Of a stretch of DNA of 32,142 nt, positions 1 through 16,958 are shown piece after piece. Source of the stretch: an uncultured bacterium (GTDB lineage: Bacteria > Patescibacteriota > Minisyncoccia > Phycocordibacterales > GWA1-40-21); contig CAILDB010000006.1 in assembly GCA_903832855.1 (NCBI GenBank), positions 1 to 32,142 on the forward strand, in the 5' to 3' direction. The notes below the pieces were generated by a model that searched no databases, was not told where the DNA came from, and saw nothing but the letters and a program-made list of their open reading frames with translations. Position 1 is the first letter of the stretch; every line of letters begins with the position of its first letter. The position numbers and the translations under genes were made by a program.

Positions 1-45
1 AATGACTATCCAGAACAGAATTTTCAAAATGTCCTGAGTGTTCAC
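1..45 (-). CDS. 5' end of a gene running off the left edge (MNTQDILKILFWIVI...)
   Basis: GTG at 45-43 preceded by SD-like AAGAGGTGA and a TTGACT-17-TAACAT promoter (134..106); frame open to the window edge. Confidence 0.5.
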   Translation of the reverse strand, partial: MNTQDILKILFWIVI

Positions 46-149
46 TAGTCACCTCTTTCTTTTTGAAATGTTTAAGAACAAAACGAAACCTAAATTCCAT
101 CTACAATGTTAGCACAAAGAGATTAGAAAGTCAAGGTTTTGAAAATTAG

Positions 150-509
150 CTAAATAATTGTTGAAGTTGAACACTCTTCCCCGTCTGATATTGTATCTGC
201 AGAACAAGTAGTAATAGTGCAATCTTTTTCACCAGTTTCGCAGATTAGCGGATCACAACCTTCTACTGCTGGGTCACAAAGTTCAATATTAAAAGCTTTC
301 TTTTCTATCTTTTTATAATAATCTATCTGGGCAGGACAGTCAGTGCCTTCGCAAGGTGCATAGAAACAACTTTCTGTTTGTGGGTCACATTTTATTTGAG
401 CAAACACCAAATAATCTTTTTTGATTACATATTTGTGAAAAGTCACACCAATAGAAATGACAATCAAAACGCCAAATATCCAAAACAAAATTTTTGATTT
501 TTTATTCAT
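150..509 (-). CDS. Membrane-anchored Cys-rich hypothetical protein
   Basis: N-terminal basic plus TM segment, then repeated CDP..C motifs; directly follows the peptidase gene. Confidence 0.75.
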   Translation of the reverse strand: MNKKSKILFWIFGVLIVISIGVTFHKYVIKKDYLVFAQIKCDPQTESCFYAPCEGTDCPAQIDYYKKIEKKAFNIELCDPAVEGCDPLICETGEKDCTITTCSADTISDGEECSTSTII

Positions 510-512
510 ATT

Positions 513-1172
513 TTACTTTAATGTTTCAACAAAATTTTTCTCAATATCTTCTAAGCTTTTGTTGAAGACACTCAAAAATAACTTATCAAAAGCATTGCAA
601 GAATAATTTGACTTGAGTTTTTTAACTAGCTCAACAACCTTATTCAAGGAATATTTATTTATTAAAAAATCCACAAACAAACAAGAGTAGGCGTATGCAC
701 TATAATTTGAATACTTATTCCAGCCATATTCAGTTGATATTTTTGATAGATAATCATTTTCTACAAAAATACCTTTATCCCTGTATTGTGTCATTTGGTC
801 TGCAAGATACATCGATAATCCTTCATTTAACCACATTGGTATCATTTTTCCATCAGAGATTTTATTTATGTAAATATGAGATATCTCATGTTTCAATATT
901 CTTGGAAAATCATCTCTTGGATGTGAGCTGTATTTTTCAAAAGAGTCCTCGTGAATAATATCTATCTCATTTTTATCAGATGTATTTCCAACCTCCCAAT
1001 CAGAAGTTTTCCTATTCAGTTGTTTATCAAAACTTTTTCTCGTATCGTGTAATCTAACTTTTATTAAAAAATCGGTAGATATTCCTAATCTACTTTCAAT
1101 ATCTGGGATTATTTTATCCAAAATAATCTTTGTATTTTCTATATTTTTTCCTAAAACCTGTACTTTACTCAT
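513..1172 (-). CDS. Zinc metallopeptidase, peptidase MA-like (HEISH...WLNEGLS)
   Basis: HExxH plus downstream P-x-W-x-x-E-G motif; start reassigned to ATG 1172, 6 nt after TGCTATCAT. Confidence 0.75.
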   Translation of the reverse strand: MSKVQVLGKNIENTKIILDKIIPDIESRLGISTDFLIKVRLHDTRKSFDKQLNRKTSDWEVGNTSDKNEIDIIHEDSFEKYSSHPRDDFPRILKHEISHIYINKISDGKMIPMWLNEGLSMYLADQMTQYRDKGIFVENDYLSKISTEYGWNKYSNYSAYAYSCLFVDFLINKYSLNKVVELVKKLKSNYSCNAFDKLFLSVFNKSLEDIEKNFVETLK

Positions 1173-1199
1173 AGTGCAATGATAGCATAAATTTAAAAT

Positions 1200-1237
1200 A
1201 AAAAAAGGAGTAACGGTGATATTCTCACCACTACTCC
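1200..1237 (-). terminator. Intrinsic terminator after the precursor peptide gene
   Basis: GGAGTAGTGGTGA-loop-TCACCGTTACTCC followed by a T run on the minus strand. Confidence 0.75.
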
Positions 1238-1258
1238 CCCGGGCAACCCCGTCTGGCT

Positions 1259-1432
1259 TCATTTGTTGCAGCCAGTGTTCTGACAGGAAACACACTGCTG
1301 GCAGCCCCGACAGGATTGTGCCAGGACTCCATCCATGATCCTCACAGGAGTGTTTTGCTCACTCCTGTCAAAACCACGGTTGAGGAGCTCATGTGTATCC
1401 GCAAAGAACTCAGATACCAGGTCCGTTTTCAT
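1259..1432 (-). CDS. Putative RiPP precursor peptide, 57 aa, Cys-rich C-terminus
   Basis: Hand-translated MKTDLVSEFFADTHELLNRGFDRSEQNTPVRIMDGVLAQSCRGCQQCVSCQNTGCNK*; SD AAGGAG 7 nt upstream; 34 nt downstream of the radical SAM gene; terminator follows. Confidence 0.8.
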   Translation of the reverse strand: MKTDLVSEFFADTHELLNRGFDRSEQNTPVRIMDGVLAQSCRGCQQCVSCQNTGCNK

Positions 1433-1466
1433 GTTTTTTCTCCTTTTTTAGGTTTATCTTACTGCA

Positions 1467-2795
1467 TCAATTACTAACTTTCTTCACCTCCTTTCTTTTA
1501 ACTATCCCAGAAAAAACCAACTTCTGTATCACAGGTTCGAGCATCTCTTCTGTGTGTCCAGTCTTTTTCGCTAATAAACCGAGAGAAAAGCTCTCGAACT
1601 GTTTAATGAGCGAAACAAAACCAAACCCCTTCGAAGTAAGATACTCTAGCTTGCCATATACAGATACAACATACCCGTTCTGTTCCTCTCTGATTATACA
1701 ATGTTTGTTGAATTCAAACAAGTCGTTTGCGTCCAACAGAACTGGACATTCTCCTCGTGGTAACAGGGCCACTCTTTTCGGATCAGATATTGGTTCTGTC
1801 ATATACATGTCTTGCCCATTGTATAATCCAGTGGTAGTTCTCGCTGACATGCGACATCCACCTTCACACACCATAAGGGCATTACATTTTATACATTTCT
1901 CTGGAAGGATTGACGGCGATGACCATTCCTTCATTTTTTCCCAAACATCCAGAAACTTATCTGGCAACACATTACCGTATAACACATCAGAGTGTATACA
2001 CGGTCTCATATCACCTCTAGATGAAATGGCACAAGAAGAAACAGCCGCCGAGCACATTCTATTACCAAAAAAACGTACGAACTCGTTCTCATCTTCTGGT
2101 CCAAAAAGGCATCTCGCCAAGGGTTCAAGTACATCTACAGTAAGGGTCAGTTCTGAACTAATCCTTATGAGCTCCCTCAAGCAAACCTTGCATTCCTCCG
2201 CCGATAAACATAATGGAATGTTTGATTTACAAGACGGTACGATTGGTCCAGAACAAAAGTTTTTTACACCAATGTCTTTGACCAACTTAGCCGTATCCCA
2301 TAGAGAAGACAGACTGATCTTTGATACTGGCATATTGACTGCAACATCAATTCCAGCATCAAGGAGGTTTCTAATCCCGTCAATCGTTTTGGCGAAACTA
2401 CCTCCTGGTCCAGCTATAGAGTTATGTACTACTTCCGGTCCAAGAACAGAGATCAGGGCATGGTTCAAACCACGCCCAGCCAGAGTCCTGGCATCCTCTT
2501 TTTCGATGAGTACGCCGTTACTGTTTAGACCTATGTCTATATCAAGCCGGTGTAGCTCAGACACTAAGTCAAACAAGACCTTCTTCCGTAACATTGGCTC
2601 TCCACCAGTGAGCGTAACGGAGCCAACTTTCGCAGAATGGATTTGTCTGACAATCGTTATGAACTCGGCTGTACCAAGTTCATCATTGGGCGGATTCTTA
2701 TCCTTTCTCCAATAATTGTAACAATGCCGGCAAATCTGATTACAACGCTCAGTCAATTCAATCTGGACATCTAACGGAGACGATAGCCTATTCAT
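1467..2795 (-). CDS. Radical SAM/SPASM domain peptide maturase with C-terminal PqqD/RRE-like extension
   Basis: CNQICRHC (CxxxCxxC), LTGGEP, SPASM cysteines CSAAVSSC...RPC...CIKC...CEGGC; SD-like GAAAGGA. Confidence 0.9.
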   Translation of the reverse strand: MNRLSSPLDVQIELTERCNQICRHCYNYWRKDKNPPNDELGTAEFITIVRQIHSAKVGSVTLTGGEPMLRKKVLFDLVSELHRLDIDIGLNSNGVLIEKEDARTLAGRGLNHALISVLGPEVVHNSIAGPGGSFAKTIDGIRNLLDAGIDVAVNMPVSKISLSSLWDTAKLVKDIGVKNFCSGPIVPSCKSNIPLCLSAEECKVCLRELIRISSELTLTVDVLEPLARCLFGPEDENEFVRFFGNRMCSAAVSSCAISSRGDMRPCIHSDVLYGNVLPDKFLDVWEKMKEWSSPSILPEKCIKCNALMVCEGGCRMSARTTTGLYNGQDMYMTEPISDPKRVALLPRGECPVLLDANDLFEFNKHCIIREEQNGYVVSVYGKLEYLTSKGFGFVSLIKQFESFSLGLLAKKTGHTEEMLEPVIQKLVFSGIVKRKEVKKVSN

Positions 2796-2860
2796 GATTT
2801 AGTTCCTTTCGTGGTTTGTAAAAGACCTTCATCTTAGAACACCTAAGACATCTGTTGTAA

Positions 2861-2888
2861 AGACTAGCAAGCTAATAGTAAATGTCAA
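2861..2888 (-). promoter_or_regulatory. Sigma70-type promoter of the rSAM operon
   Basis: TTGACA-16-TAGTCT with extended TG. Confidence 0.55.
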
Positions 2889-3220
2889 GGACGGTCAATT
2901 GTTCCTCATACTATGCTAGTTGTAGACTCAGTAGACATACCCAAATCCTCTAGTTCTTTGATTGAAAGCTTGATATCGTCACTATGTTGAATAAGTTCGG
3001 AAAGCCAGTATAATGGGTCACAATAAAGAAAAAGACTGGACTGCTCCAGTCTTTTTCTTTATTGTGAAAGCGCAGTGATATTTTGTCAGCAGACAAAATC
3101 ACGAGCTGGGGTCGCAAACACTTACACATTTTGAAATTAATTAATTTAAAAATGTTTAGTGATTTGTGACTACATAATTTATGAATGCGAAGCATACGAA
3201 AATCTGCTATAATCAAAAAT

Positions 3221-3946
3221 ATGGAAGTTGTTTTCCTGTCAATTTTAACTTTTATTTCCACCGCACTTGGCGGGCTTTTTTCAATTAAACAGAAAGATAA
3301 TCTTCACAGAATAATGGGCTTTACTGCAGGAGTGCTTCTTGGAGTCGTGTTTTTTGATATTTTCCCTGAAATTATAAATTTGATTAAGGAAAATAATTTT
3401 AGTTCAAATGGAGTTATGATTGCTCTTGTCCTTGGATTTTTGGTTTTTCATATTTTGGAAAAGACGATTTTGATTCACCATTCACACGAGGATGAATATG
3501 CAGACCACAAACATCCACAAGTTGGTGTCGCTTCGGCACTAGCACTCGTAGTTCACAGTTTTATGGATGGTGCAGGTATTGGTCTAGGTTTTCAAGTAAG
3601 TAACGAAGTTGGAATTTTAGTGGCAATCGCTGTCATAGCTCACGATTTTACTGATGGGATGAATACTGTTACGTTAATGCTAACCCACAAAAACAGTTTG
3701 TTGAAAGCAAAATGGTTTTTATTACTAGACGCACTGGCACCGATTCTCGGAGCTATATCCACATTATTTTTTAAAGTTCCAACGAATTTCCTTGTTTTGT
3801 ATCTTGGATTTTTTGCCGGCTTTCTCCTCTACATTGGTGCAAGCGATATTTTACCTGAGGCACATAGTAAAAATAGTTCACTCAAAACAATTGCTTTAAC
3901 CATTGCTGGAGTAATTCTTATTTTTATAATTACTCGTCTAGTCTAA
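3221..3946 (+). CDS. ZIP family divalent metal (zinc) transporter, ZupT-like
   Basis: Multiple TM helices, His-rich loop HHSHEDEYADHKH, HSFMDG and AHDFTDG motifs; start set at ATG 3221. Confidence 0.9.
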   Translation: MEVVFLSILTFISTALGGLFSIKQKDNLHRIMGFTAGVLLGVVFFDIFPEIINLIKENNFSSNGVMIALVLGFLVFHILEKTILIHHSHEDEYADHKHPQVGVASALALVVHSFMDGAGIGLGFQVSNEVGILVAIAVIAHDFTDGMNTVTLMLTHKNSLLKAKWFLLLDALAPILGAISTLFFKVPTNFLVLYLGFFAGFLLYIGASDILPEAHSKNSSLKTIALTIAGVILIFIITRLV

Positions 3947-3982
3947 GTTGATTAAATTTCAATTTTAGATTACTCTTCTAAT

Positions 3983-5170
3983 ATGATTATTTTAGGTATT
4001 GAAACATCCTGCGACGAGACAGCAATAAGCACTTTGGATATTGAAAAAATTGGAGAAAAAACGGTTATAAAAGTTCTGGGAAATCAACTTTTTTCACAAA
4101 TTGCAATACACGCACAATACGGCGGGGTCTTCCCTATGATGGCCAAAAGATCTCACGCAGAAAATATTCTTCCGTTATTTTCGGAATGTTTGAAGGAAGC
4201 AGGACTTTATAATGAAACTCGAACTGAATTGTCGGAAGAAAAAATTCAAAAGACAAAAGAAATTTTAGAAAGAGAATTTGAACTTGCAGAAAAAGTTGTG
4301 GAATTTGCAAAAAATGTTTCTGCTCCGAAAATTGATGCAATTTCCGTCACACAAGGTCCCGGACTTGAGCCAGCACTTTGGGTTGGACTCAACTTTGCAA
4401 AAGCAATTTCATATCTTTGGGACATTCCGCTCATTCCCACAAATCATATGGAGGGGCACATTTTTGCAGGGCTTATGCAAAAGTCTGAAAGCGGTTACGA
4501 AATCACAAATCCAGAAATGCCAGCAATTTCATTGCTTATTAGCGGTGGTCACACACAGCTCGTTCTCTCAAAATCATTACAAGAATATGAGGTTGTGGGC
4601 GAAACAAGAGATGATGCCGTGGGTGAAGCATTTGATAAGGTGGCAAGAATTATTGGACTTCCCTATCCTGGTGGACCGCAAATTTCTAAACTTGCTGAAA
4701 AAGAAAGAATGGATTGCTTCGCAGAGCTCGCAAAGACAGAAGAGAAAAAATGGAATTTCCCTCGCCCAATGATTCACTCAAAAGATTTGAACTTTTCTTT
4801 TTCTGGATTAAAAACTTCCATACTTTACACTGTCAAAAAAATCCCTGAAATGACAGAAAAAATAAAACAAGAAATTGCGCGAGAATTTGAAGACGCTGTA
4901 GTAGAAGTCCTCACACACAAAACAAAGGATGCGATAGAACAGTATGGAGCAAAAACCCTCATACTCGGTGGAGGAGTAAGTGCCAACAAAGAAATTCGAA
5001 AGAAACTGGCCGAGCTCGCAGACTCGCTCGGCGTCTCTTTCTTCGTCCCAGAAATCAGTGCCTCAACCGACAACTCTCTCATGATGGCGGTCGCTGGGTT
5101 TTTTAATTTTCATAATCAAAAACCATATTCCGGAGAAACTCTCAAGGCTGATGGCAATTTGACTTTGTAA
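3983..5170 (+). CDS. tsaD: tRNA threonylcarbamoyladenosine transferase TsaD
   Basis: ILGIETSCDET, GPGL, NHMEGH, SGGHT, TRDDAVGEAFDK, FSFSGLK motifs. Confidence 0.97.
   Translation: MIILGIETSCDETAISTLDIEKIGEKTVIKVLGNQLFSQIAIHAQYGGVFPMMAKRSHAENILPLFSECLKEAGLYNETRTELSEEKIQKTKEILEREFELAEKVVEFAKNVSAPKIDAISVTQGPGLEPALWVGLNFAKAISYLWDIPLIPTNHMEGHIFAGLMQKSESGYEITNPEMPAISLLISGGHTQLVLSKSLQEYEVVGETRDDAVGEAFDKVARIIGLPYPGGPQISKLAEKERMDCFAELAKTEEKKWNFPRPMIHSKDLNFSFSGLKTSILYTVKKIPEMTEKIKQEIAREFEDAVVEVLTHKTKDAIEQYGAKTLILGGGVSANKEIRKKLAELADSLGVSFFVPEISASTDNSLMMAVAGFFNFHNQKPYSGETLKADGNLTL
4710..4740 (+). repeat. Palindromic repeat copy inside tsaD
   Basis: TGGATTGCTTCGCAGAGCTCGCAAAGACAGA matches copies at 14729-14759 and 18207-18237. 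Confidence 0.85.
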
Positions 5171-5193
5171 AAGTCTTTTGCTAATCTTTATGA

Positions 5194-5325
5194 ATCGCCA
5201 CCAGTCCGAACTTTGCGGGATTGGGAGTTGATCAAGGACATACAGGTGGTTCTCTTTCCGGAAGAGGACTGCAGTAAAGCCGACACAGCAAGGGTAGTTG
5301 TTCTCCTTCCAGGAGGTGACGACTA
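5194..5325 (+). ncRNA. Candidate rod-shaped small RNA (6S-like?)
   Basis: Promoter TTGACT-17-TAATCT (5159-5187), end-to-end pairing, terminator at 5327; no credible ORF. Confidence 0.45.
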
Positions 5326-5326
5326 C

Positions 5327-5356
5327 GCCGTACCTACACGTGGGTACGGCTTTTTT
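5327..5356 (+). terminator. Intrinsic terminator
   Basis: GCCGTACC-8nt-GGTACGGC-TTTTTT. Confidence 0.8.
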
Positions 5357-5670
5357 ATTTCCCAAAAAACATTATTTTTGCTATTATCAACGCAGTAACC
5401 GACGTGAAGGATTTCTCTCATCCAAAAGTCGGTGAGGCGGTCGCGCCCGAGAGATCGTCTGGTTTGGCAACTCACCACACTTATCGGACTAAAGAATAGG
5501 AGAGAATTAAAGCGAACTTGTACACAAGCCAAGATTCCGCTTGCCACCCTGACCTGAGCCCGCATCTTTCCTTATTAGTACGAATCCTAGGTTCGCAACG
5601 AAAAGGAGAAATGACGAAGCGGGGGTGGTTTTTCTTTGTCTAAATATCATTTATTTGCTATTATTTACCC

Positions 5671-7842
5671 GTGAACGACAAATTTTTAAAACCATACAAT
5701 CCGCAAGAAACTGAGCCAAGAATTTACAAAGAATGGCTAGATAGCGGTTTTTTTAATCCTGATAATCTTCCGGAAAGACACAAGATTCCATACACTATAA
5801 TGATGCCTCCGCCAAATGTTACGGGGATTTTACATATGGGCCATGCAATGATGCTTACCGTGGAAGACATAATGATTCGTTATCAAAGAATGCTTGGCAA
5901 AAAAACTCTCTGGCTCCCAGGCACAGATCACGCCGCCATCGCCACTCAAGCGAGAGTTGAAAAAGATATTTATAAAAAAGAAGAAAAAAACAGATACGAC
6001 CTCGGCCGAGAAGAACTTTTAAAAAGAATTGATAAATTTGCAAAAGAAAGTCACGATACTATCACCTCACAAATAAAAGTGCTGGGTGCTTCTTGCGATT
6101 GGTCTCGAGAGGCATTTACTTTGGATGAAAAAAGAAATCTCGCAGTCCGCACCGTCTTCAAAAAAATGTATGATGACGGACTTATTTATCGTGGAAATAG
6201 AATTATAAACTGGGACCCAAAAGGTCAGACGACTATTTCTGATGATGAAATCGTCTATGAGGAAGAAAAAACAAAATTTTATTATTTTAAATATGGTCCA
6301 TTTGTAATCGGAACTACTAGACCTGAAACAAAATTTGGCGATAAATATGTCGTTATGCATCCAGATGACAAAAGGTATTCCGAATACAAACATGGACAAA
6401 AGATAGATCTTGAATGGATAAACGGACCAATCACTGCAACAGTAATAAAGGATAAATCCATCGACATGGAATTTGGAACTGGCGTGATGACGATTACTCC
6501 TTGGCACAGCAAAGAGGATTTTGAAATTGGAGAGAGACACAATCTAGATAAGGAACAAATAATAGATAAGTATGGGCGACTTTTACCGATTGCTGGAGAA
6601 TTTTCCGGTATGAAGATAGCAGAGGCCAGATTAAAAATAATTGAAAAATTAAAATCAAAGGGTCTTCTTGAAAGAGAAGAAGATTATATACACAACACCG
6701 CGACAGCGGAAAGAACAGGAGGAAAAATTGAACCTCAAATAATGAACCAGTGGTTTGTCGCAGTGAATAAAAAGTTCACACTTCCCCACTCAGAAATAAA
6801 TGGCATCTCAAGTGGCGCAGAAACTACATTAAAAGAAATAATGAAAAACGCCGTGGAAGGTGGCCTAGTAAATATTATTCCTGATTATTTTTCCAAAACA
6901 TATTTTCATTGGATAGAAAACTTGAGTGACTGGTGCATTTCAAGACAAATTTGGTATGGTCACAGAATTCCAGTTTGGTATAAAGGTGAGGAAATTTATT
7001 GTGATATTGAAGCACCAAAAGATGACGGCTATGTACAAGACGAAGATACACTAGACACATGGTTTTCATCCGCACTTTGGACTTTTTCTGCGCTCGGTTG
7101 GCCAGAAAAAACAAAAGATTTGGAACTTTACCATCCGACAGACGTGCTAGAAACTGGGTATGGAATTATTTTCTTTTGGGTTGCTAGAATGATAATGATG
7201 TCAGGATACAATCTCGGCACGATTCCATTTAAAAATGTTTATTTCCACGGCACAGTCAGAGATGCAAAAGGCAGGATAATGTCAAAATCTCTCGGAAATG
7301 GTATGGACCCACTGGAAGTTGCCAAAAAGTTTGGAATGGATGCTGGCAGAATGGCACTCATTGTAGGCATCGCTCCAGGCACAGATACCAAAATTGCAGA
7401 AGATAAAATAAAAGGCTACAAAAACTTTGCAAATAAAGTTTGGAATATTGCAAGATTTGTTTTTTCAAATACCGAAGATGTAAAATATGACCCAACGTTT
7501 GAGGACTACAATATTTCTGATAAAGAACTCATAGACGAGAGACGAGCAGTTTTGGAAGATATTACCGGAGAAATGAATGAATACAAAATTTACATAGCGA
7601 GCGAAAAATTGTATCATTACATCTGGCACAGATTTGCAGACATTATTCTAGAAGAAAGTAAAAAGATTTTTGACAGCGGAAAACCAGAAGAAAAAGTTTC
7701 TAGAAAGCAGTTTTTGTTGAAAACTTTTGATGAAATACTGCACGCTTTACACCCATTTATGCCATTTCTTACAGAAGAAATCTGGAGTGAAATGCCAATA
7801 GACAACAAAAAACTTTTGATGATAGAAAAATGGCCAATTTAA
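5671..7842 (+). CDS. valS: Valine--tRNA ligase, lacking the C-terminal coiled coil
   Basis: PPPNVTG-LHMGH, GTDHA, DWCISRQIWYGH, DTWFSS, MSKS. Confidence 0.97.
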   Translation: MNDKFLKPYNPQETEPRIYKEWLDSGFFNPDNLPERHKIPYTIMMPPPNVTGILHMGHAMMLTVEDIMIRYQRMLGKKTLWLPGTDHAAIATQARVEKDIYKKEEKNRYDLGREELLKRIDKFAKESHDTITSQIKVLGASCDWSREAFTLDEKRNLAVRTVFKKMYDDGLIYRGNRIINWDPKGQTTISDDEIVYEEEKTKFYYFKYGPFVIGTTRPETKFGDKYVVMHPDDKRYSEYKHGQKIDLEWINGPITATVIKDKSIDMEFGTGVMTITPWHSKEDFEIGERHNLDKEQIIDKYGRLLPIAGEFSGMKIAEARLKIIEKLKSKGLLEREEDYIHNTATAERTGGKIEPQIMNQWFVAVNKKFTLPHSEINGISSGAETTLKEIMKNAVEGGLVNIIPDYFSKTYFHWIENLSDWCISRQIWYGHRIPVWYKGEEIYCDIEAPKDDGYVQDEDTLDTWFSSALWTFSALGWPEKTKDLELYHPTDVLETGYGIIFFWVARMIMMSGYNLGTIPFKNVYFHGTVRDAKGRIMSKSLGNGMDPLEVAKKFGMDAGRMALIVGIAPGTDTKIAEDKIKGYKNFANKVWNIARFVFSNTEDVKYDPTFEDYNISDKELIDERRAVLEDITGEMNEYKIYIASEKLYHYIWHRFADIILEESKKIFDSGKPEEKVSRKQFLLKTFDEILHALHPFMPFLTEEIWSEMPIDNKKLLMIEKWPI

Positions 7843-7846
7843 AAAA

Positions 7847-8632
7847 ATGCATATTAGCACACAATTAATTACTACTTTATTCTTTGCATCTATCGGTGGT
7901 TTATTACCTGTATGTATTTGGCTTTATTTTTGGCTTAGGGAAGACAGGCTCTGTCCAGAACCAAAATTTTTAATTTTCTTAACTTTTCTCGGTGGTGCAA
8001 TCGGAACAGTTGTTGCTTTGTTTTTAGAAAAATTAGTTTATTCAGTAAATATTTTATCATTCTTTTCTTCCCAGCATCTTTCACAAATAAATGATTTTAT
8101 CAGAAATTCAATGCAATCGGGAGTGACTCTGGAAAAATTATTGATGGTTGCATTTTTTGCTCCCATAATAGAAGAACTTGTTAAATTTTTCTTTGCGTAT
8201 TTTATTGCTATGAGAAATAAAGCAAATGATGAGCCAATCGACCCAATTATTTATATGATTACGGCAGCACTTGGATTTGCTGCTATTGAAAACTTATTCT
8301 TTCTCATAGATCCACTTACTAAAAATAACCTTATTTTTGGCCTTCTTACTGGAAATATGAGATTTATCGGAGCTACACTTTTACACACGGTTTCTTCTGC
8401 CGTTATTGGAATGTTTCTAGGATTTACATATTTCAAAACGAGAGGAAAAAAGTGGTTTTATACAGTCGCGGGAATTATTTTTGCAATCCTCTTGCATTCC
8501 GCCTTTAATTTTTCTATAATTATGAAAGGTGAAAATAATGCGATGCTTTCAATGGAAAGTATTTGGATCGTCGTAGTCATTATTCTTTTGCTTTTTGAAA
8601 AAATCAAAAATATTAAACTTAATAAAATTTAA
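7847..8632 (+). CDS. PrsW-family intramembrane glutamic protease
   Basis: APIIEELVK, GFAAIEN and two conserved His in TM helices. Confidence 0.88.
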   Translation: MHISTQLITTLFFASIGGLLPVCIWLYFWLREDRLCPEPKFLIFLTFLGGAIGTVVALFLEKLVYSVNILSFFSSQHLSQINDFIRNSMQSGVTLEKLLMVAFFAPIIEELVKFFFAYFIAMRNKANDEPIDPIIYMITAALGFAAIENLFFLIDPLTKNNLIFGLLTGNMRFIGATLLHTVSSAVIGMFLGFTYFKTRGKKWFYTVAGIIFAILLHSAFNFSIIMKGENNAMLSMESIWIVVVIILLLFEKIKNIKLNKI

Positions 8633-15875: not shown

Positions 15876-16958
15876 TTATCCTCCATGACTCGGTAAACCA
15901 TAATACCGATGGAAGGCAACCCACGGCCCCGATACGTTATTCGACGGTTTCGGGACAATCGTCACGACGACTTTCCCGACGTTTTGACTAAACGTATGAA
16001 CTCTGGTCTGTGACCAGTATTGCCCGGAAGTACTATCGTCCTTCAACGGTAGCAACGGCATATCGCCATCGCTACTCGTAGCTGACTGAACGTAAACATC
16101 GTACTCGCCGTTCAACACGATTTCCAGAGCGCCCGGTCCAACATCGGCAAATATTACCTTGCCCAAAACATTAGAACCGCCGTTCATTGGAACCGAACAG
16201 TCAAAACTGATCGAAGGTACCGAAGCCCAACACTCGACGCCATCAGGTTGTGTAAATTCCACTCCCTGAACATTGCCGATGTATGAAAATCCCACATAGG
16301 CATTGTCTGGCGTGACCACACTGTGGAAAGGCTCCAGCCATCCCTCGCCAATCACCATTCCATCACTCCGACGCCGGAGGATATAGTGGTAACTTCCACC
16401 GACGGGCGACATATAGACGTAAAACTTTCCATCAGTTACGCCCCAGCCGTATCCCTGATTGTATCCCTCGATCGTGAGATCGAGATCGTTTCCATACTGG
16501 GATACATCAATCGGGATTTCCTGCCTAATTTCAGCCGGACTAATCACGACCTTGAGGCTATCGCCTTTCGAAACGCTTTGTAGATAGAGATAACCGCTAC
16601 CGGCATACTCCCCACCCTTGGTCATCGCGTTCATGTTCAGCCAAACATTACGCATCAGGCCCGCATCGCCCATCGGAATTCCGTAAATCGGTTCCGGTAA
16701 TGCGATTTGGTTTCCATTGATTGCGAGGTTCGTGATGGCGAAATCGCCACGCATGGTAAACGACATGTTCATCATTTGCCACGAATTGCTCACCAGCATC
16801 TCTCCAGCCATTTGGCATTGGAAACTCGCCGGCGTCTTCAAGGCGAAAGCCCTGGCGACGTTAAGCGGGTTAATGTTGGTATCGGTCTGCGCCTGCACCG
16901 GAGTGCAGAGGCCGACGATGATTGCGAACAGAACTGCGAACATGATTGTCTTTTTCAT
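15876..16958 (-). CDS. Secreted beta-rich hypothetical protein
   Basis: Signal peptide MKKTIMFAVLFAIIVGLCTPVQA; SD AAGGT; GC-richer than flanks. Confidence 0.8.
   Translation of the reverse strand: MKKTIMFAVLFAIIVGLCTPVQAQTDTNINPLNVARAFALKTPASFQCQMAGEMLVSNSWQMMNMSFTMRGDFAITNLAINGNQIALPEPIYGIPMGDAGLMRNVWLNMNAMTKGGEYAGSGYLYLQSVSKGDSLKVVISPAEIRQEIPIDVSQYGNDLDLTIEGYNQGYGWGVTDGKFYVYMSPVGGSYHYILRRRSDGMVIGEGWLEPFHSVVTPDNAYVGFSYIGNVQGVEFTQPDGVECWASVPSISFDCSVPMNGGSNVLGKVIFADVGPGALEIVLNGEYDVYVQSATSSDGDMPLLPLKDDSTSGQYWSQTRVHTFSQNVGKVVVTIVPKPSNNVSGPWVAFHRYYGLPSHGG

Follow-up and report, generated by a model that had tools for sequence, protein, structure and literature searches.

A probable three-gene RiPP cassette of a radical SAM/SPASM enzyme with a C-terminal recognition domain, a Cys-rich peptide and a zinc peptidase in a Patescibacteriota genome

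Several described systems for peptides that ribosomes make and that are then modified post-translationally (RiPPs) rely on a radical S-adenosylmethionine (rSAM) enzyme that carries a SPASM domain. In the ranthipeptide/SCIFF (i.e., CteA-CteB) and freyrasin (i.e., PapA-PapB) systems, an rSAM/SPASM enzyme with a RiPP recognition element (RRE) is found beside a short precursor with a Cys-rich core. The sactipeptide maturases SkfB, AlbA and StsB also act beside a Cys-bearing precursor, and the mycofactocin system (i.e., MftA/B/C/E) combines an rSAM/SPASM enzyme, an MftB-type RRE, a small peptide and a peptidase. MftB is the PqqD-family chaperone of mycofactocin synthesis, and thioether formation is the known outcome of the action of SPASM enzymes on Cys-rich peptides. 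Here we describe a locus with a similar set of parts on the minus strand of a 32,142-nucleotide (nt) stretch of DNA from an uncultured bacterium of the Patescibacteriota (Minisyncoccia; Phycocordibacterales; contig CAILDB010000006.1 of assembly GCA_903832855.1), the whole of which is called the window below. The gene order is an rSAM/SPASM enzyme, a 57-amino acid (aa) Cys-rich peptide and an HExxH zinc peptidase. Given that an RRE and a peptidase gene accompany the enzyme-precursor pair, the locus is very likely a RiPP-type cassette, and it probably makes a cross-linked peptide. The general marks of RiPP systems are found here, i.e., a PqqD-like RRE and a short adjoining precursor gene whose leader is conserved and whose core varies. 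An earlier note, made from the letters of this DNA, had proposed that the enzyme and the small open reading frame (ORF) form a functional unit, and comparison of homologous loci points to just such a conserved enzyme-substrate pair of RiPP type.

The 442-aa enzyme, already read as an rSAM/SPASM protein in the earlier note, was matched by the Pfam families Radical_SAM (E = 1.3e-23), Fer4_12 and SPASM. The SPASM match covered residues 248-305 with E = 2.7e-4 and 21.6 bits, compared to a cut-off of 21.5 bits, and SPASM was also matched in 19/19 homologues, with a best E of 4.2e-7. In the alignment of these 19 homologues, the seven invariant Cys residues of the SPASM region include the patterns C-x12-G-x4-C and C-x2-C-x5-C-x3-C. 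Judged by its sequence, the enzyme is a member of the Radical SAM/SPASM superfamily. The AlphaFold (AF2) model of the full enzyme has a predicted local distance difference test score (pLDDT) of 89.3, and the best Foldseek matches of this model were SkfB, anSME, PqqE, SuiB and CteB. SkfB was the best match in the Protein Data Bank (PDB) by sequence (E = 6.4e-15) as well as by fold. None of the NCBIfam models reached its own curated cut-off on the enzyme. The highest scores were those of AhbD (119.5 bits), GeoRSP (109.7), NirJ2 (106.4), NirJ (105.1) and WgkB (101), followed at lower levels by MftC (79.5; cut-off 265), PqqE (75.9), StsB (66.8; cut-off 625), SkfB (64.8; cut-off 300) and AlbA (55; cut-off 850).

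Two other assignments of the enzyme were considered and rejected. For a heme or cofactor enzyme, the AhbD and NirJ scores stand against cut-offs of 500 and 515 bits, respectively, the best-matching stretches lie in the N-terminal rSAM half only, and the conserved partners of the enzyme are a peptide and a peptidase. For an anti-phage defence system, PADLOC showed only a generic rSAM likeness to viperin models at residues 10-117, and the peptide and the peptidase had no match in PADLOC at all.

The last ~100 residues of the enzyme are predicted to fold into four strands followed by three helices, and they contain a conserved motif of the R-x-E-x-F-G type, in which RxE is invariant. When 20 homologous C-terminal domains were scanned alone, 12 were matched by the NCBIfam model MftB (best E = 2.8e-7). 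The domain alone was modelled with a pLDDT of 89.6, and its Foldseek matches in the PDB were PqqD, the McbBCD microcin synthetase complex, the PbtF RRE, MccB, TruD, TbtB, ThcOx, TigE and lasso-peptide B1 proteins, almost all of which are RREs, with template modelling (TM) scores of 0.5-0.6 and E-values from 5.6e-3 to 0.2. All lines combined, sequence conservation and predicted fold identify the C-terminal domain as an RRE fused to the enzyme. The earlier note mentioned neither this domain nor the peptidase as part of the unit. In a relative with 73% identity (locus L002, 3001..4317), the enzyme ORF stops at 346 aa and the RRE domain is found as a separate 85-aa ORF 19 nt past the enzyme ORF, followed by the precursor and peptidase genes as usual; either the gene is split here or a frameshift has occurred.

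The 57-aa ORF starts 34 nt after the stop codon of the enzyme gene, behind the Shine-Dalgarno site that the earlier note had pointed out. Codon-position identities over 7 homologues were 0.56/0.67/0.38, as in coding DNA, and only the precursor frame stays open in all 7. A profile of the precursor had a single match in the genome (E = 5.8e-20). Moreover, the exact 57-aa protein is present in a public protein collection, where it has been predicted from 29 contigs, and the same collection includes 30 relatives at E ≤ 0.001, none of them named beyond 'hypothetical protein' and none with a Pfam family. The peptide, described earlier as unannotated, had therefore been called before, and it is in name and family that the description holds. 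On this comparative evidence, the small ORF is a real gene. That the frame is instead open by chance, within the 3' untranslated region of the rSAM gene, might be suggested by its length of only 57 aa and by the lack of any protein family match. Such an origin is hardly credible in view of its conserved position and residues, its coding substitution pattern and its 30 homologues, and it is refuted as far as the comparative data reach.

In an alignment of 12 precursors, C41, C47, C50, C55 and N56 of the core are invariant, while C44 and N52 are conserved to 90% or more. The leader/core boundary would lie between residues 39 and 40. A leader-like part and a Cys-rich core, as read in the earlier note, are both present; the leader motif is conserved in the clade of the window, and the spacing given for the five Cys residues (C-x2-C-x2-C-x2-C-x4-C) is exact. 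The core had also been regarded as unlike that of SCIFF, in agreement with which a hidden Markov model (HMM) search of the window peptide and 7 related precursors against NCBIfam, a library that we take to include the SCIFF precursor model, yielded no family at E up to 10. Pfam gave no match with the window peptide, and a search of the ESM Atlas with it returned one unnamed cluster with a score of 0.81, which is under the level that the tool regards as meaningful.

Relatives of the enzyme were collected by a scan of one genome per species, in which 244 were found and 80 loci were kept, giving 81 loci with the window. Loci were evaluable if their enzyme ORF was full-length and followed by 250 nt or more of sequence, as was the case for 69 loci, the window included; those left out were 2 loci lacking an intact enzyme ORF with the motif, 6 with an enzyme ORF <400 aa and 4 with <250 nt downstream. 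A precursor was defined as an ORF of 25-100 aa that has four or more Cys among its 30 C-terminal residues and starts from -60 to +250 nt relative to the enzyme stop. The scan for a conserved peptide beside rSAM homologues, proposed in the earlier note, was positive by this rule in 52 of the 69 evaluable loci, while 106 of 4368 other small ORFs in the same loci (2.4%) pass the Cys criterion. Of the loci that failed the rule or were broken, 24 were inspected by eye, and in 18 of these a candidate was present once the rule was relaxed or a different gene order was allowed (i.e., after the peptidase gene or upstream). In L037, L046, L048 and L069, the candidate precursor stands after the peptidase gene (~5040..5340 in each), and its core of Pro/Cys-rich repeats (PPPPC type), which follows a conserved leader motif, is very unlike that of the window. 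In the closest relative (L082, 75% identity), the end of another SPASM gene is found upstream of the cassette (29..401), together with a further short Cys-rich ORF that is unlike the first; this locus may have two such systems next to each other.

The third gene encodes a protein matched by Pfam Peptidase_MA_2 with E = 8.7e-12 and 45.7 bits, compared to a cut-off of 32.4 bits. Its ORF reads HEISH and later NEG, and by these sequence features it belongs to the Peptidase MA clan (i.e., gluzincins). When every ORF of 90 aa or more in the 81 loci was included in a clustering, the only widely common neighbors were HExxH proteins, which formed five clusters present in 39, 16, 11, 6 and 5 loci, the largest of which includes the window ORF. 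An HExxH ORF was located ≤700 nt from the enzyme gene in 65/81 loci, compared to 16/275 ORFs further away, and several of the 16 loci without a nearby HExxH ORF are cut short. In the clade of the window, 14 loci have enzyme, precursor and peptidase in this order on the same strand. Beyond the enzyme and the HExxH clusters, no neighbor cluster occurred in more than 4/81 loci. Given that the HExxH gene is conserved beside the maturase, the unit extends down to position 513, and the self-contained unit of 1200..2890 outlined in the earlier note is too short. The predicted role of the peptidase is removal of the leader. Directly downstream of the peptidase gene is a 119-aa ORF (150..509, minus strand) that has a hydrophobic segment at its N-terminus and 14 Cys in its Cys-rich C-terminal part. 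This ORF is not a conserved neighbor of the cassette.

Within a clade of enzymes, the leader motif and the Cys residues of the precursors are conserved, and the short hydrophobic leader motif is particular to each clade. From one clade to another, the cores show wide differences yet are all Cys-rich. Those of the other clades are Cys/Asp-rich, of the D-G-N-P-C type, of alternating Cys, Gly/Cys/Asp-rich or Pro/Cys-rich, and many cores end in Cys-x-Lys/Arg. The relation of these types to the enzymes was followed on a FastTree phylogeny of 101 enzymes from 128 sources (i.e., 127 loci and the window), with the 27 sources that lacked a motif-bearing enzyme ORF of 400-520 aa left out. Precursor classes were assigned by custom regular expressions, which left 46/101 rows without a label (33 'other', 12 'none', 1 Pro/Cys-rich); spurious ORFs are among the 'other' picks. 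Five precursor classes required 5 changes on the enzyme tree; the minimum is 4, the mean of shuffled labels was 29.6, and 0/200 shuffles were as low. The precursor class of the window forms a single clade with a support of 100, and the D-G-N-P-C class is its sister. As related rows inherit labels, the tree demonstrates clustering of enzymes by substrate type rather than independent events of co-evolution. In this sense, the sequences show that precursor types follow enzyme clades and that enzyme and peptide co-diversify.

These observations also bear on whether the small ORF could be an unmodified metallothionein- or ferredoxin-like metal-binding peptide, with the rSAM enzyme acting elsewhere. 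The C-x2-C-x2-C-x3-C spacing in part of the clade resembles a 4Fe-4S motif, and a candidate ZIP-type metal transporter, named from ORF reading alone, is encoded upstream (3185..3946). The Cys spacing is not, however, conserved between clades, the ZIP gene is not a conserved neighbor, and a leader/core layout, a fused RRE and the co-diversification of enzyme and peptide would be unexpected for an unrelated neighbor. A metal-binding peptide of this kind is thus highly improbable.

For the RiPP cassette, we propose that the 57-aa precursor would dock by its leader (F-F...N-R) on the C-terminal PqqD/MftB-like domain, and that the enzyme would cleave S-adenosylmethionine to generate a 5'-deoxyadenosyl radical and modify the Cys-rich core. 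The most likely product would contain intramolecular thioether cross-links from the five Cys residues to carbons of neighboring residues, with the conserved Asn/Asp as the best acceptor candidates, and the adjoining HExxH zinc peptidase would then cut off the leader. This joint reading (i.e., a three-gene RiPP cassette with RRE docking, a thioether-modified core and leader removal by a zincin) is, in our judgement, somewhat more probable than its alternatives together. Its single parts differ in strength, and the thioether chemistry as such, drawn by analogy to known SPASM enzymes, is put forward tentatively, as a possibility of slightly less than even weight. Because Cys-richness is the sole core feature common to all clades, the Cys residues are the foremost candidates for reaction. 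Both SkfB and CteB are described in PMC8326336 as having an auxiliary cluster in which a coordination site is open for a substrate Cys. Linkage of Cys to Asp or Glu by PapB is described in PMC9413430, and the conserved Asn/Asp beside the last Cys residues of the precursors would fit PapB-like acceptors.

The same cassette might also carry out another chemistry, such as C-C or C-N cross-linking, epimerisation, oxidation or decarboxylation, with the Cys residues serving for metal binding or disulfides. Chemistries of this sort are attributed to MftC, PqqE and WgkB, which are nearer relatives in sequence and whose models score at least as high as those of the sactipeptide maturases; the RRE is of the MftB type, and the Cys-x-Lys/Arg ends of many cores could mark a C-terminal modification. 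Given, however, that the invariant core positions are four Cys and one Asn, that aromatic residues are not conserved, and that Cys-richness alone is kept across clades, which suggests that it is the Cys residues that react or are modified, we regard another chemistry as unlikely. Still less likely is a product that is not secreted but serves inside the cell, following the logic of mycofactocin or PQQ, as a peptide-derived cofactor or metal chelator. The parts list equals that of the mycofactocin system, no conserved exporter is found among the 81 loci, and the peptidase, which starts with MSKVQVLGKNIENTK, has no evident hydrophobic N-terminal stretch when read by eye. The cores, in contrast, have very different lengths, spacings and compositions from clade to clade, unlike the cofactor precursors MftA and PqqA, which presumably keep an invariant reactive end; further cofactor-tailoring genes are not conserved, and the score of the MftC model is far below its cut-off.

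Returning to the thioether-forming RiPP cassette that we favor, several observations weigh against parts of it. Regarding the RRE, the window's own C-terminal domain had no match to MftB at E ≤ 1, none of the Foldseek E-values of this domain was ≤0.001, a sequence profile of the domain against the PDB gave weak winged-helix matches (best E = 0.018, SelB) and no RRE, and Pfam showed no PqqD match on the 19 full-length homologues. Regarding the precursor, 6 of the 24 loci inspected by eye had no candidate peptide. In addition, a clade of 13 enzymes with 24-31% identity to that of the window (L063 and L106-L117) is without a convincing Cys-rich ORF, 8 of its loci having no candidate and 5 having best picks that are not Cys-rich; these enzymes may use another substrate. 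Regarding the chemistry, the AhbD, GeoRSP, NirJ, WgkB and MftC models of NCBIfam outscore those of the sactipeptide maturases on the enzyme, and by HMM score the enzyme is closer to SPASM families that are non-thioether or uncharacterised than to thioether formers. The SCIFF maturase model TIGR03974 reached only 15.4 bits, compared to a cut-off of 425, and matched the SPASM region only. Regarding the unit as a whole, no conserved transporter, exporter or immunity gene was found among the 81 loci, so that action outside the cell is no more than a possibility. Finally, the precursor and peptidase genes are set apart by a strong terminator, and the GC content of the peptidase gene (0.296) is far below that of the enzyme gene (0.428). 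Given this GC gap, the two genes in this genome may not share a history or a transcript, and joint transcription of the peptidase gene with the upstream genes is, in view of both the terminator and the GC gap, no more than an assumption.

The coordinates of the features are given in Table 1. The promoter proposed in the earlier note was borne out in its -35 element, which is perfect; its -10 element matches 3/6 consensus positions, for which reason the site was not called by a scan for consensus promoters. An AAGGAA site is located 7 nt upstream of the ATG of the enzyme gene. The terminator, likewise read earlier, was called by the terminator scan, in which 7 terminator-like sites were found in the region scanned, compared to 1.7 expected from shuffles. 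No Rfam family reached its gathering score in window positions 1..8000. This includes 5200..5650, a part of raised GC content (0.46-0.49) between tsaD-like and valS-like genes that has no long ORF. Elsewhere in the window, a 360-aa ORF (15879..16958, minus strand) with a GC content of 0.51 and a GC content at third codon positions (GC3) of 0.58 is the clear compositional outlier (gene mean GC, 0.37).

Table 1. Features of the cassette in the window and the basis of their assignment (aa, amino acids; nt, nucleotides).
Feature	Position	Strand	Basis
rSAM/SPASM peptide maturase, 442 aa, with C-terminal RRE	1467..2795	-	Pfam, NCBIfam, AlphaFold, Foldseek
CxxxCxxC rSAM cluster motif (C18, C22, C25)	2721..2744	-	Invariant in 19/19 aligned homologues
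SPASM auxiliary-cluster region	1854..2111	-	Invariant Cys C229, C248, C266, C301, C304, C310, C314
RRE, PqqD/MftB-like winged helix, ~residues 355-435	1491..1733	-	NCBIfam MftB on homologues, model fold, Foldseek
Precursor peptide gene, 57 aa and stop	1259..1432	-	Conserved beside maturase; codon-position identities; genome profile search
Leader part, residues 1-39	1316..1432	-	Alignment of 12 precursors; F-F-x7-N-R, with F10 and R19 invariant
Core part, residues 40-57, 5 Cys	1262..1315	-	Alignment of 12 precursors
HExxH zinc peptidase (Peptidase_MA_2), 219 aa from ATG at 1172; predicted leader peptidase	513..1172	-	Pfam; neighbor clustering
Putative promoter	2861..2888	-	-35 TTGACA (2888..2883), 16-nt spacer, -10 TAGTCT (2866..2861); function predicted
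Shine-Dalgarno site AAGGAG	1440..1445	-	Read from sequence; 7 nt ahead of precursor ATG
Intrinsic terminator, between precursor and peptidase genes	1194..1240	-	Terminator scan; 16-pair stem 1240..1204, then T-run

Candidate phyla radiation (CPR)/Patescibacteria bacteria have very small genomes and are usually called poor in secondary metabolism. The source genome is 746 kb in size and 98.8% complete. The cassette had been regarded as unexpected in such a CPR-like genome, a view that is not borne out: the family is centred on the CPR, as 52 of the 80 kept loci bear Patescibacteria-group lineage names, counted from record titles. Of the remaining loci, 15 are from bacteria without a lineage label and 13 have other labels, several of them from automated binning, which include two Nanoarchaeota-type archaea and one Vulcanimicrobiota genus. 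L050 and L059, from bins labelled Nanoarchaeota and 'archaeon', contain the enzyme and a Cys/Asp-rich precursor and form a clade of their own with a support of 100, which reflects either CPR-DPANN transfer or mis-binning. In an even sample of the phylum, the enzyme profile matched 19 of 401 genomes at E ≤ 1e-40; among the 18 matching genomes besides the source genome, the match spans the whole enzyme model in 7. No match to this profile came from the 20 listed genomes that belong to the same order or class. Thus, the cassette is typical of the phylum but patchy. The enzyme gene has GC and GC3 contents of 0.428 and 0.407, compared to gene means of 0.373 and 0.322 in the window (standard deviations, 0.045 and 0.075), and the GC content of the precursor gene is 0.51, but that of the peptidase gene is only 0.296; this composition and the patchy distribution are weak hints of horizontal transfer, a reading that we do not adopt. 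The same genome contains a second rSAM/SPASM maturase-like gene of 443 aa on contig C1 (locus L130, 979..2310, minus strand), whose best NCBIfam matches, all under their own cut-offs, were the FibroRumin maturase (121.5 bits; cut-off 400), PapB (91.9), QhpD (88.3) and the SCIFF maturase (76.7). A 62-aa ORF without a family match (2413..2601, minus strand) is located directly upstream of it.

It is notable that such small genomes retain the cassette. Its maintenance in many lineages of <1 Mb, with cores that diversify along with the enzyme, suggests that the peptide is important for their lifestyle. We consider it doubtful, although worth stating, that the cassette is the founding member of a large, undescribed CPR-centred class of RiPPs whose own architecture comprises an rSAM-SPASM enzyme ending in an MftB-like RRE, hypervariable Cys/Asp/Asn/Pro-rich cores and a dedicated zincin, and whose cross-link chemistry or product role is unlike those of sactipeptides and ranthipeptides. 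If so, the product might be a peptide with which ultrasmall episymbionts act on, or signal to, their host cells. As the cassette comprises three small genes with no other conserved partners, it is practical to study, and the many natural enzyme-core pairs could be used to derive substrate rules. Given that the precursor families are matched by no Pfam or NCBIfam model, they are probably missed by model-based genome mining. The RiPPs and other biosynthetic gene clusters reported from the CPR in PMC7298704, PMC12153355 and PMC8939145 are only azoline peptides, a lanthipeptide, a terpene cluster, YcaO-related clusters and graspetides. The main texts searched contain no description of the present family, members of which may be listed under generic labels in supplementary tables of biosynthetic gene clusters and in rSAM compendia, and no curated Pfam or NCBIfam family names the enzyme or the peptide.

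Compared to the ranthipeptide/SCIFF systems, no NCBIfam model recognizes the precursor of this locus at E up to 10, the TIGR03974 maturase model stays far under its cut-off on the enzyme, and the RRE is C-terminal in the window enzyme, in contrast to CteB, where it is N-terminal. The Asp/Asn-rich cores of many relatives recall the Cys-Asp/Glu links made by PapB (PMC9413430); the PapB model, however, is not among the 25 best NCBIfam models of the window enzyme. The HExxH peptidase within the unit is a further difference from both the ranthipeptide and freyrasin systems. Sactipeptide systems differ in domain order and precursor family, and the scores of the SkfB, AlbA and StsB models are all well under their cut-offs. 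The mycofactocin system is similar in its parts. Here, in contrast, enzyme and RRE form one fused protein, the cores vary and are rich in Cys, other Mft genes are not among the conserved neighbors, the MftC score stays under its equivalog cut-off, and the peptidase is a zincin, while MftE presumably belongs to another family. Among the best NCBIfam models on the enzyme are also GeoRSP, ScmE (86.8 bits) and ACGX (86.5 bits), each matching over ~320 residues. GeoRSP, ACGX and SynChlorMet ScmE/F are uncharacterised Cys-rich systems defined in silico; the scores of these models are far under their 400-bit cut-offs, their matches end near residue 330 and exclude the C-terminal RRE stretch, and, as their chemistry is undefined, no mechanism can be taken from them. 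Thus, what is new at this locus is an rSAM/SPASM RiPP system that, as read from sequence and predicted structure, brings together an MftB-like RRE at the C-terminus of the enzyme, new families of precursors and a zincin dedicated to the unit.

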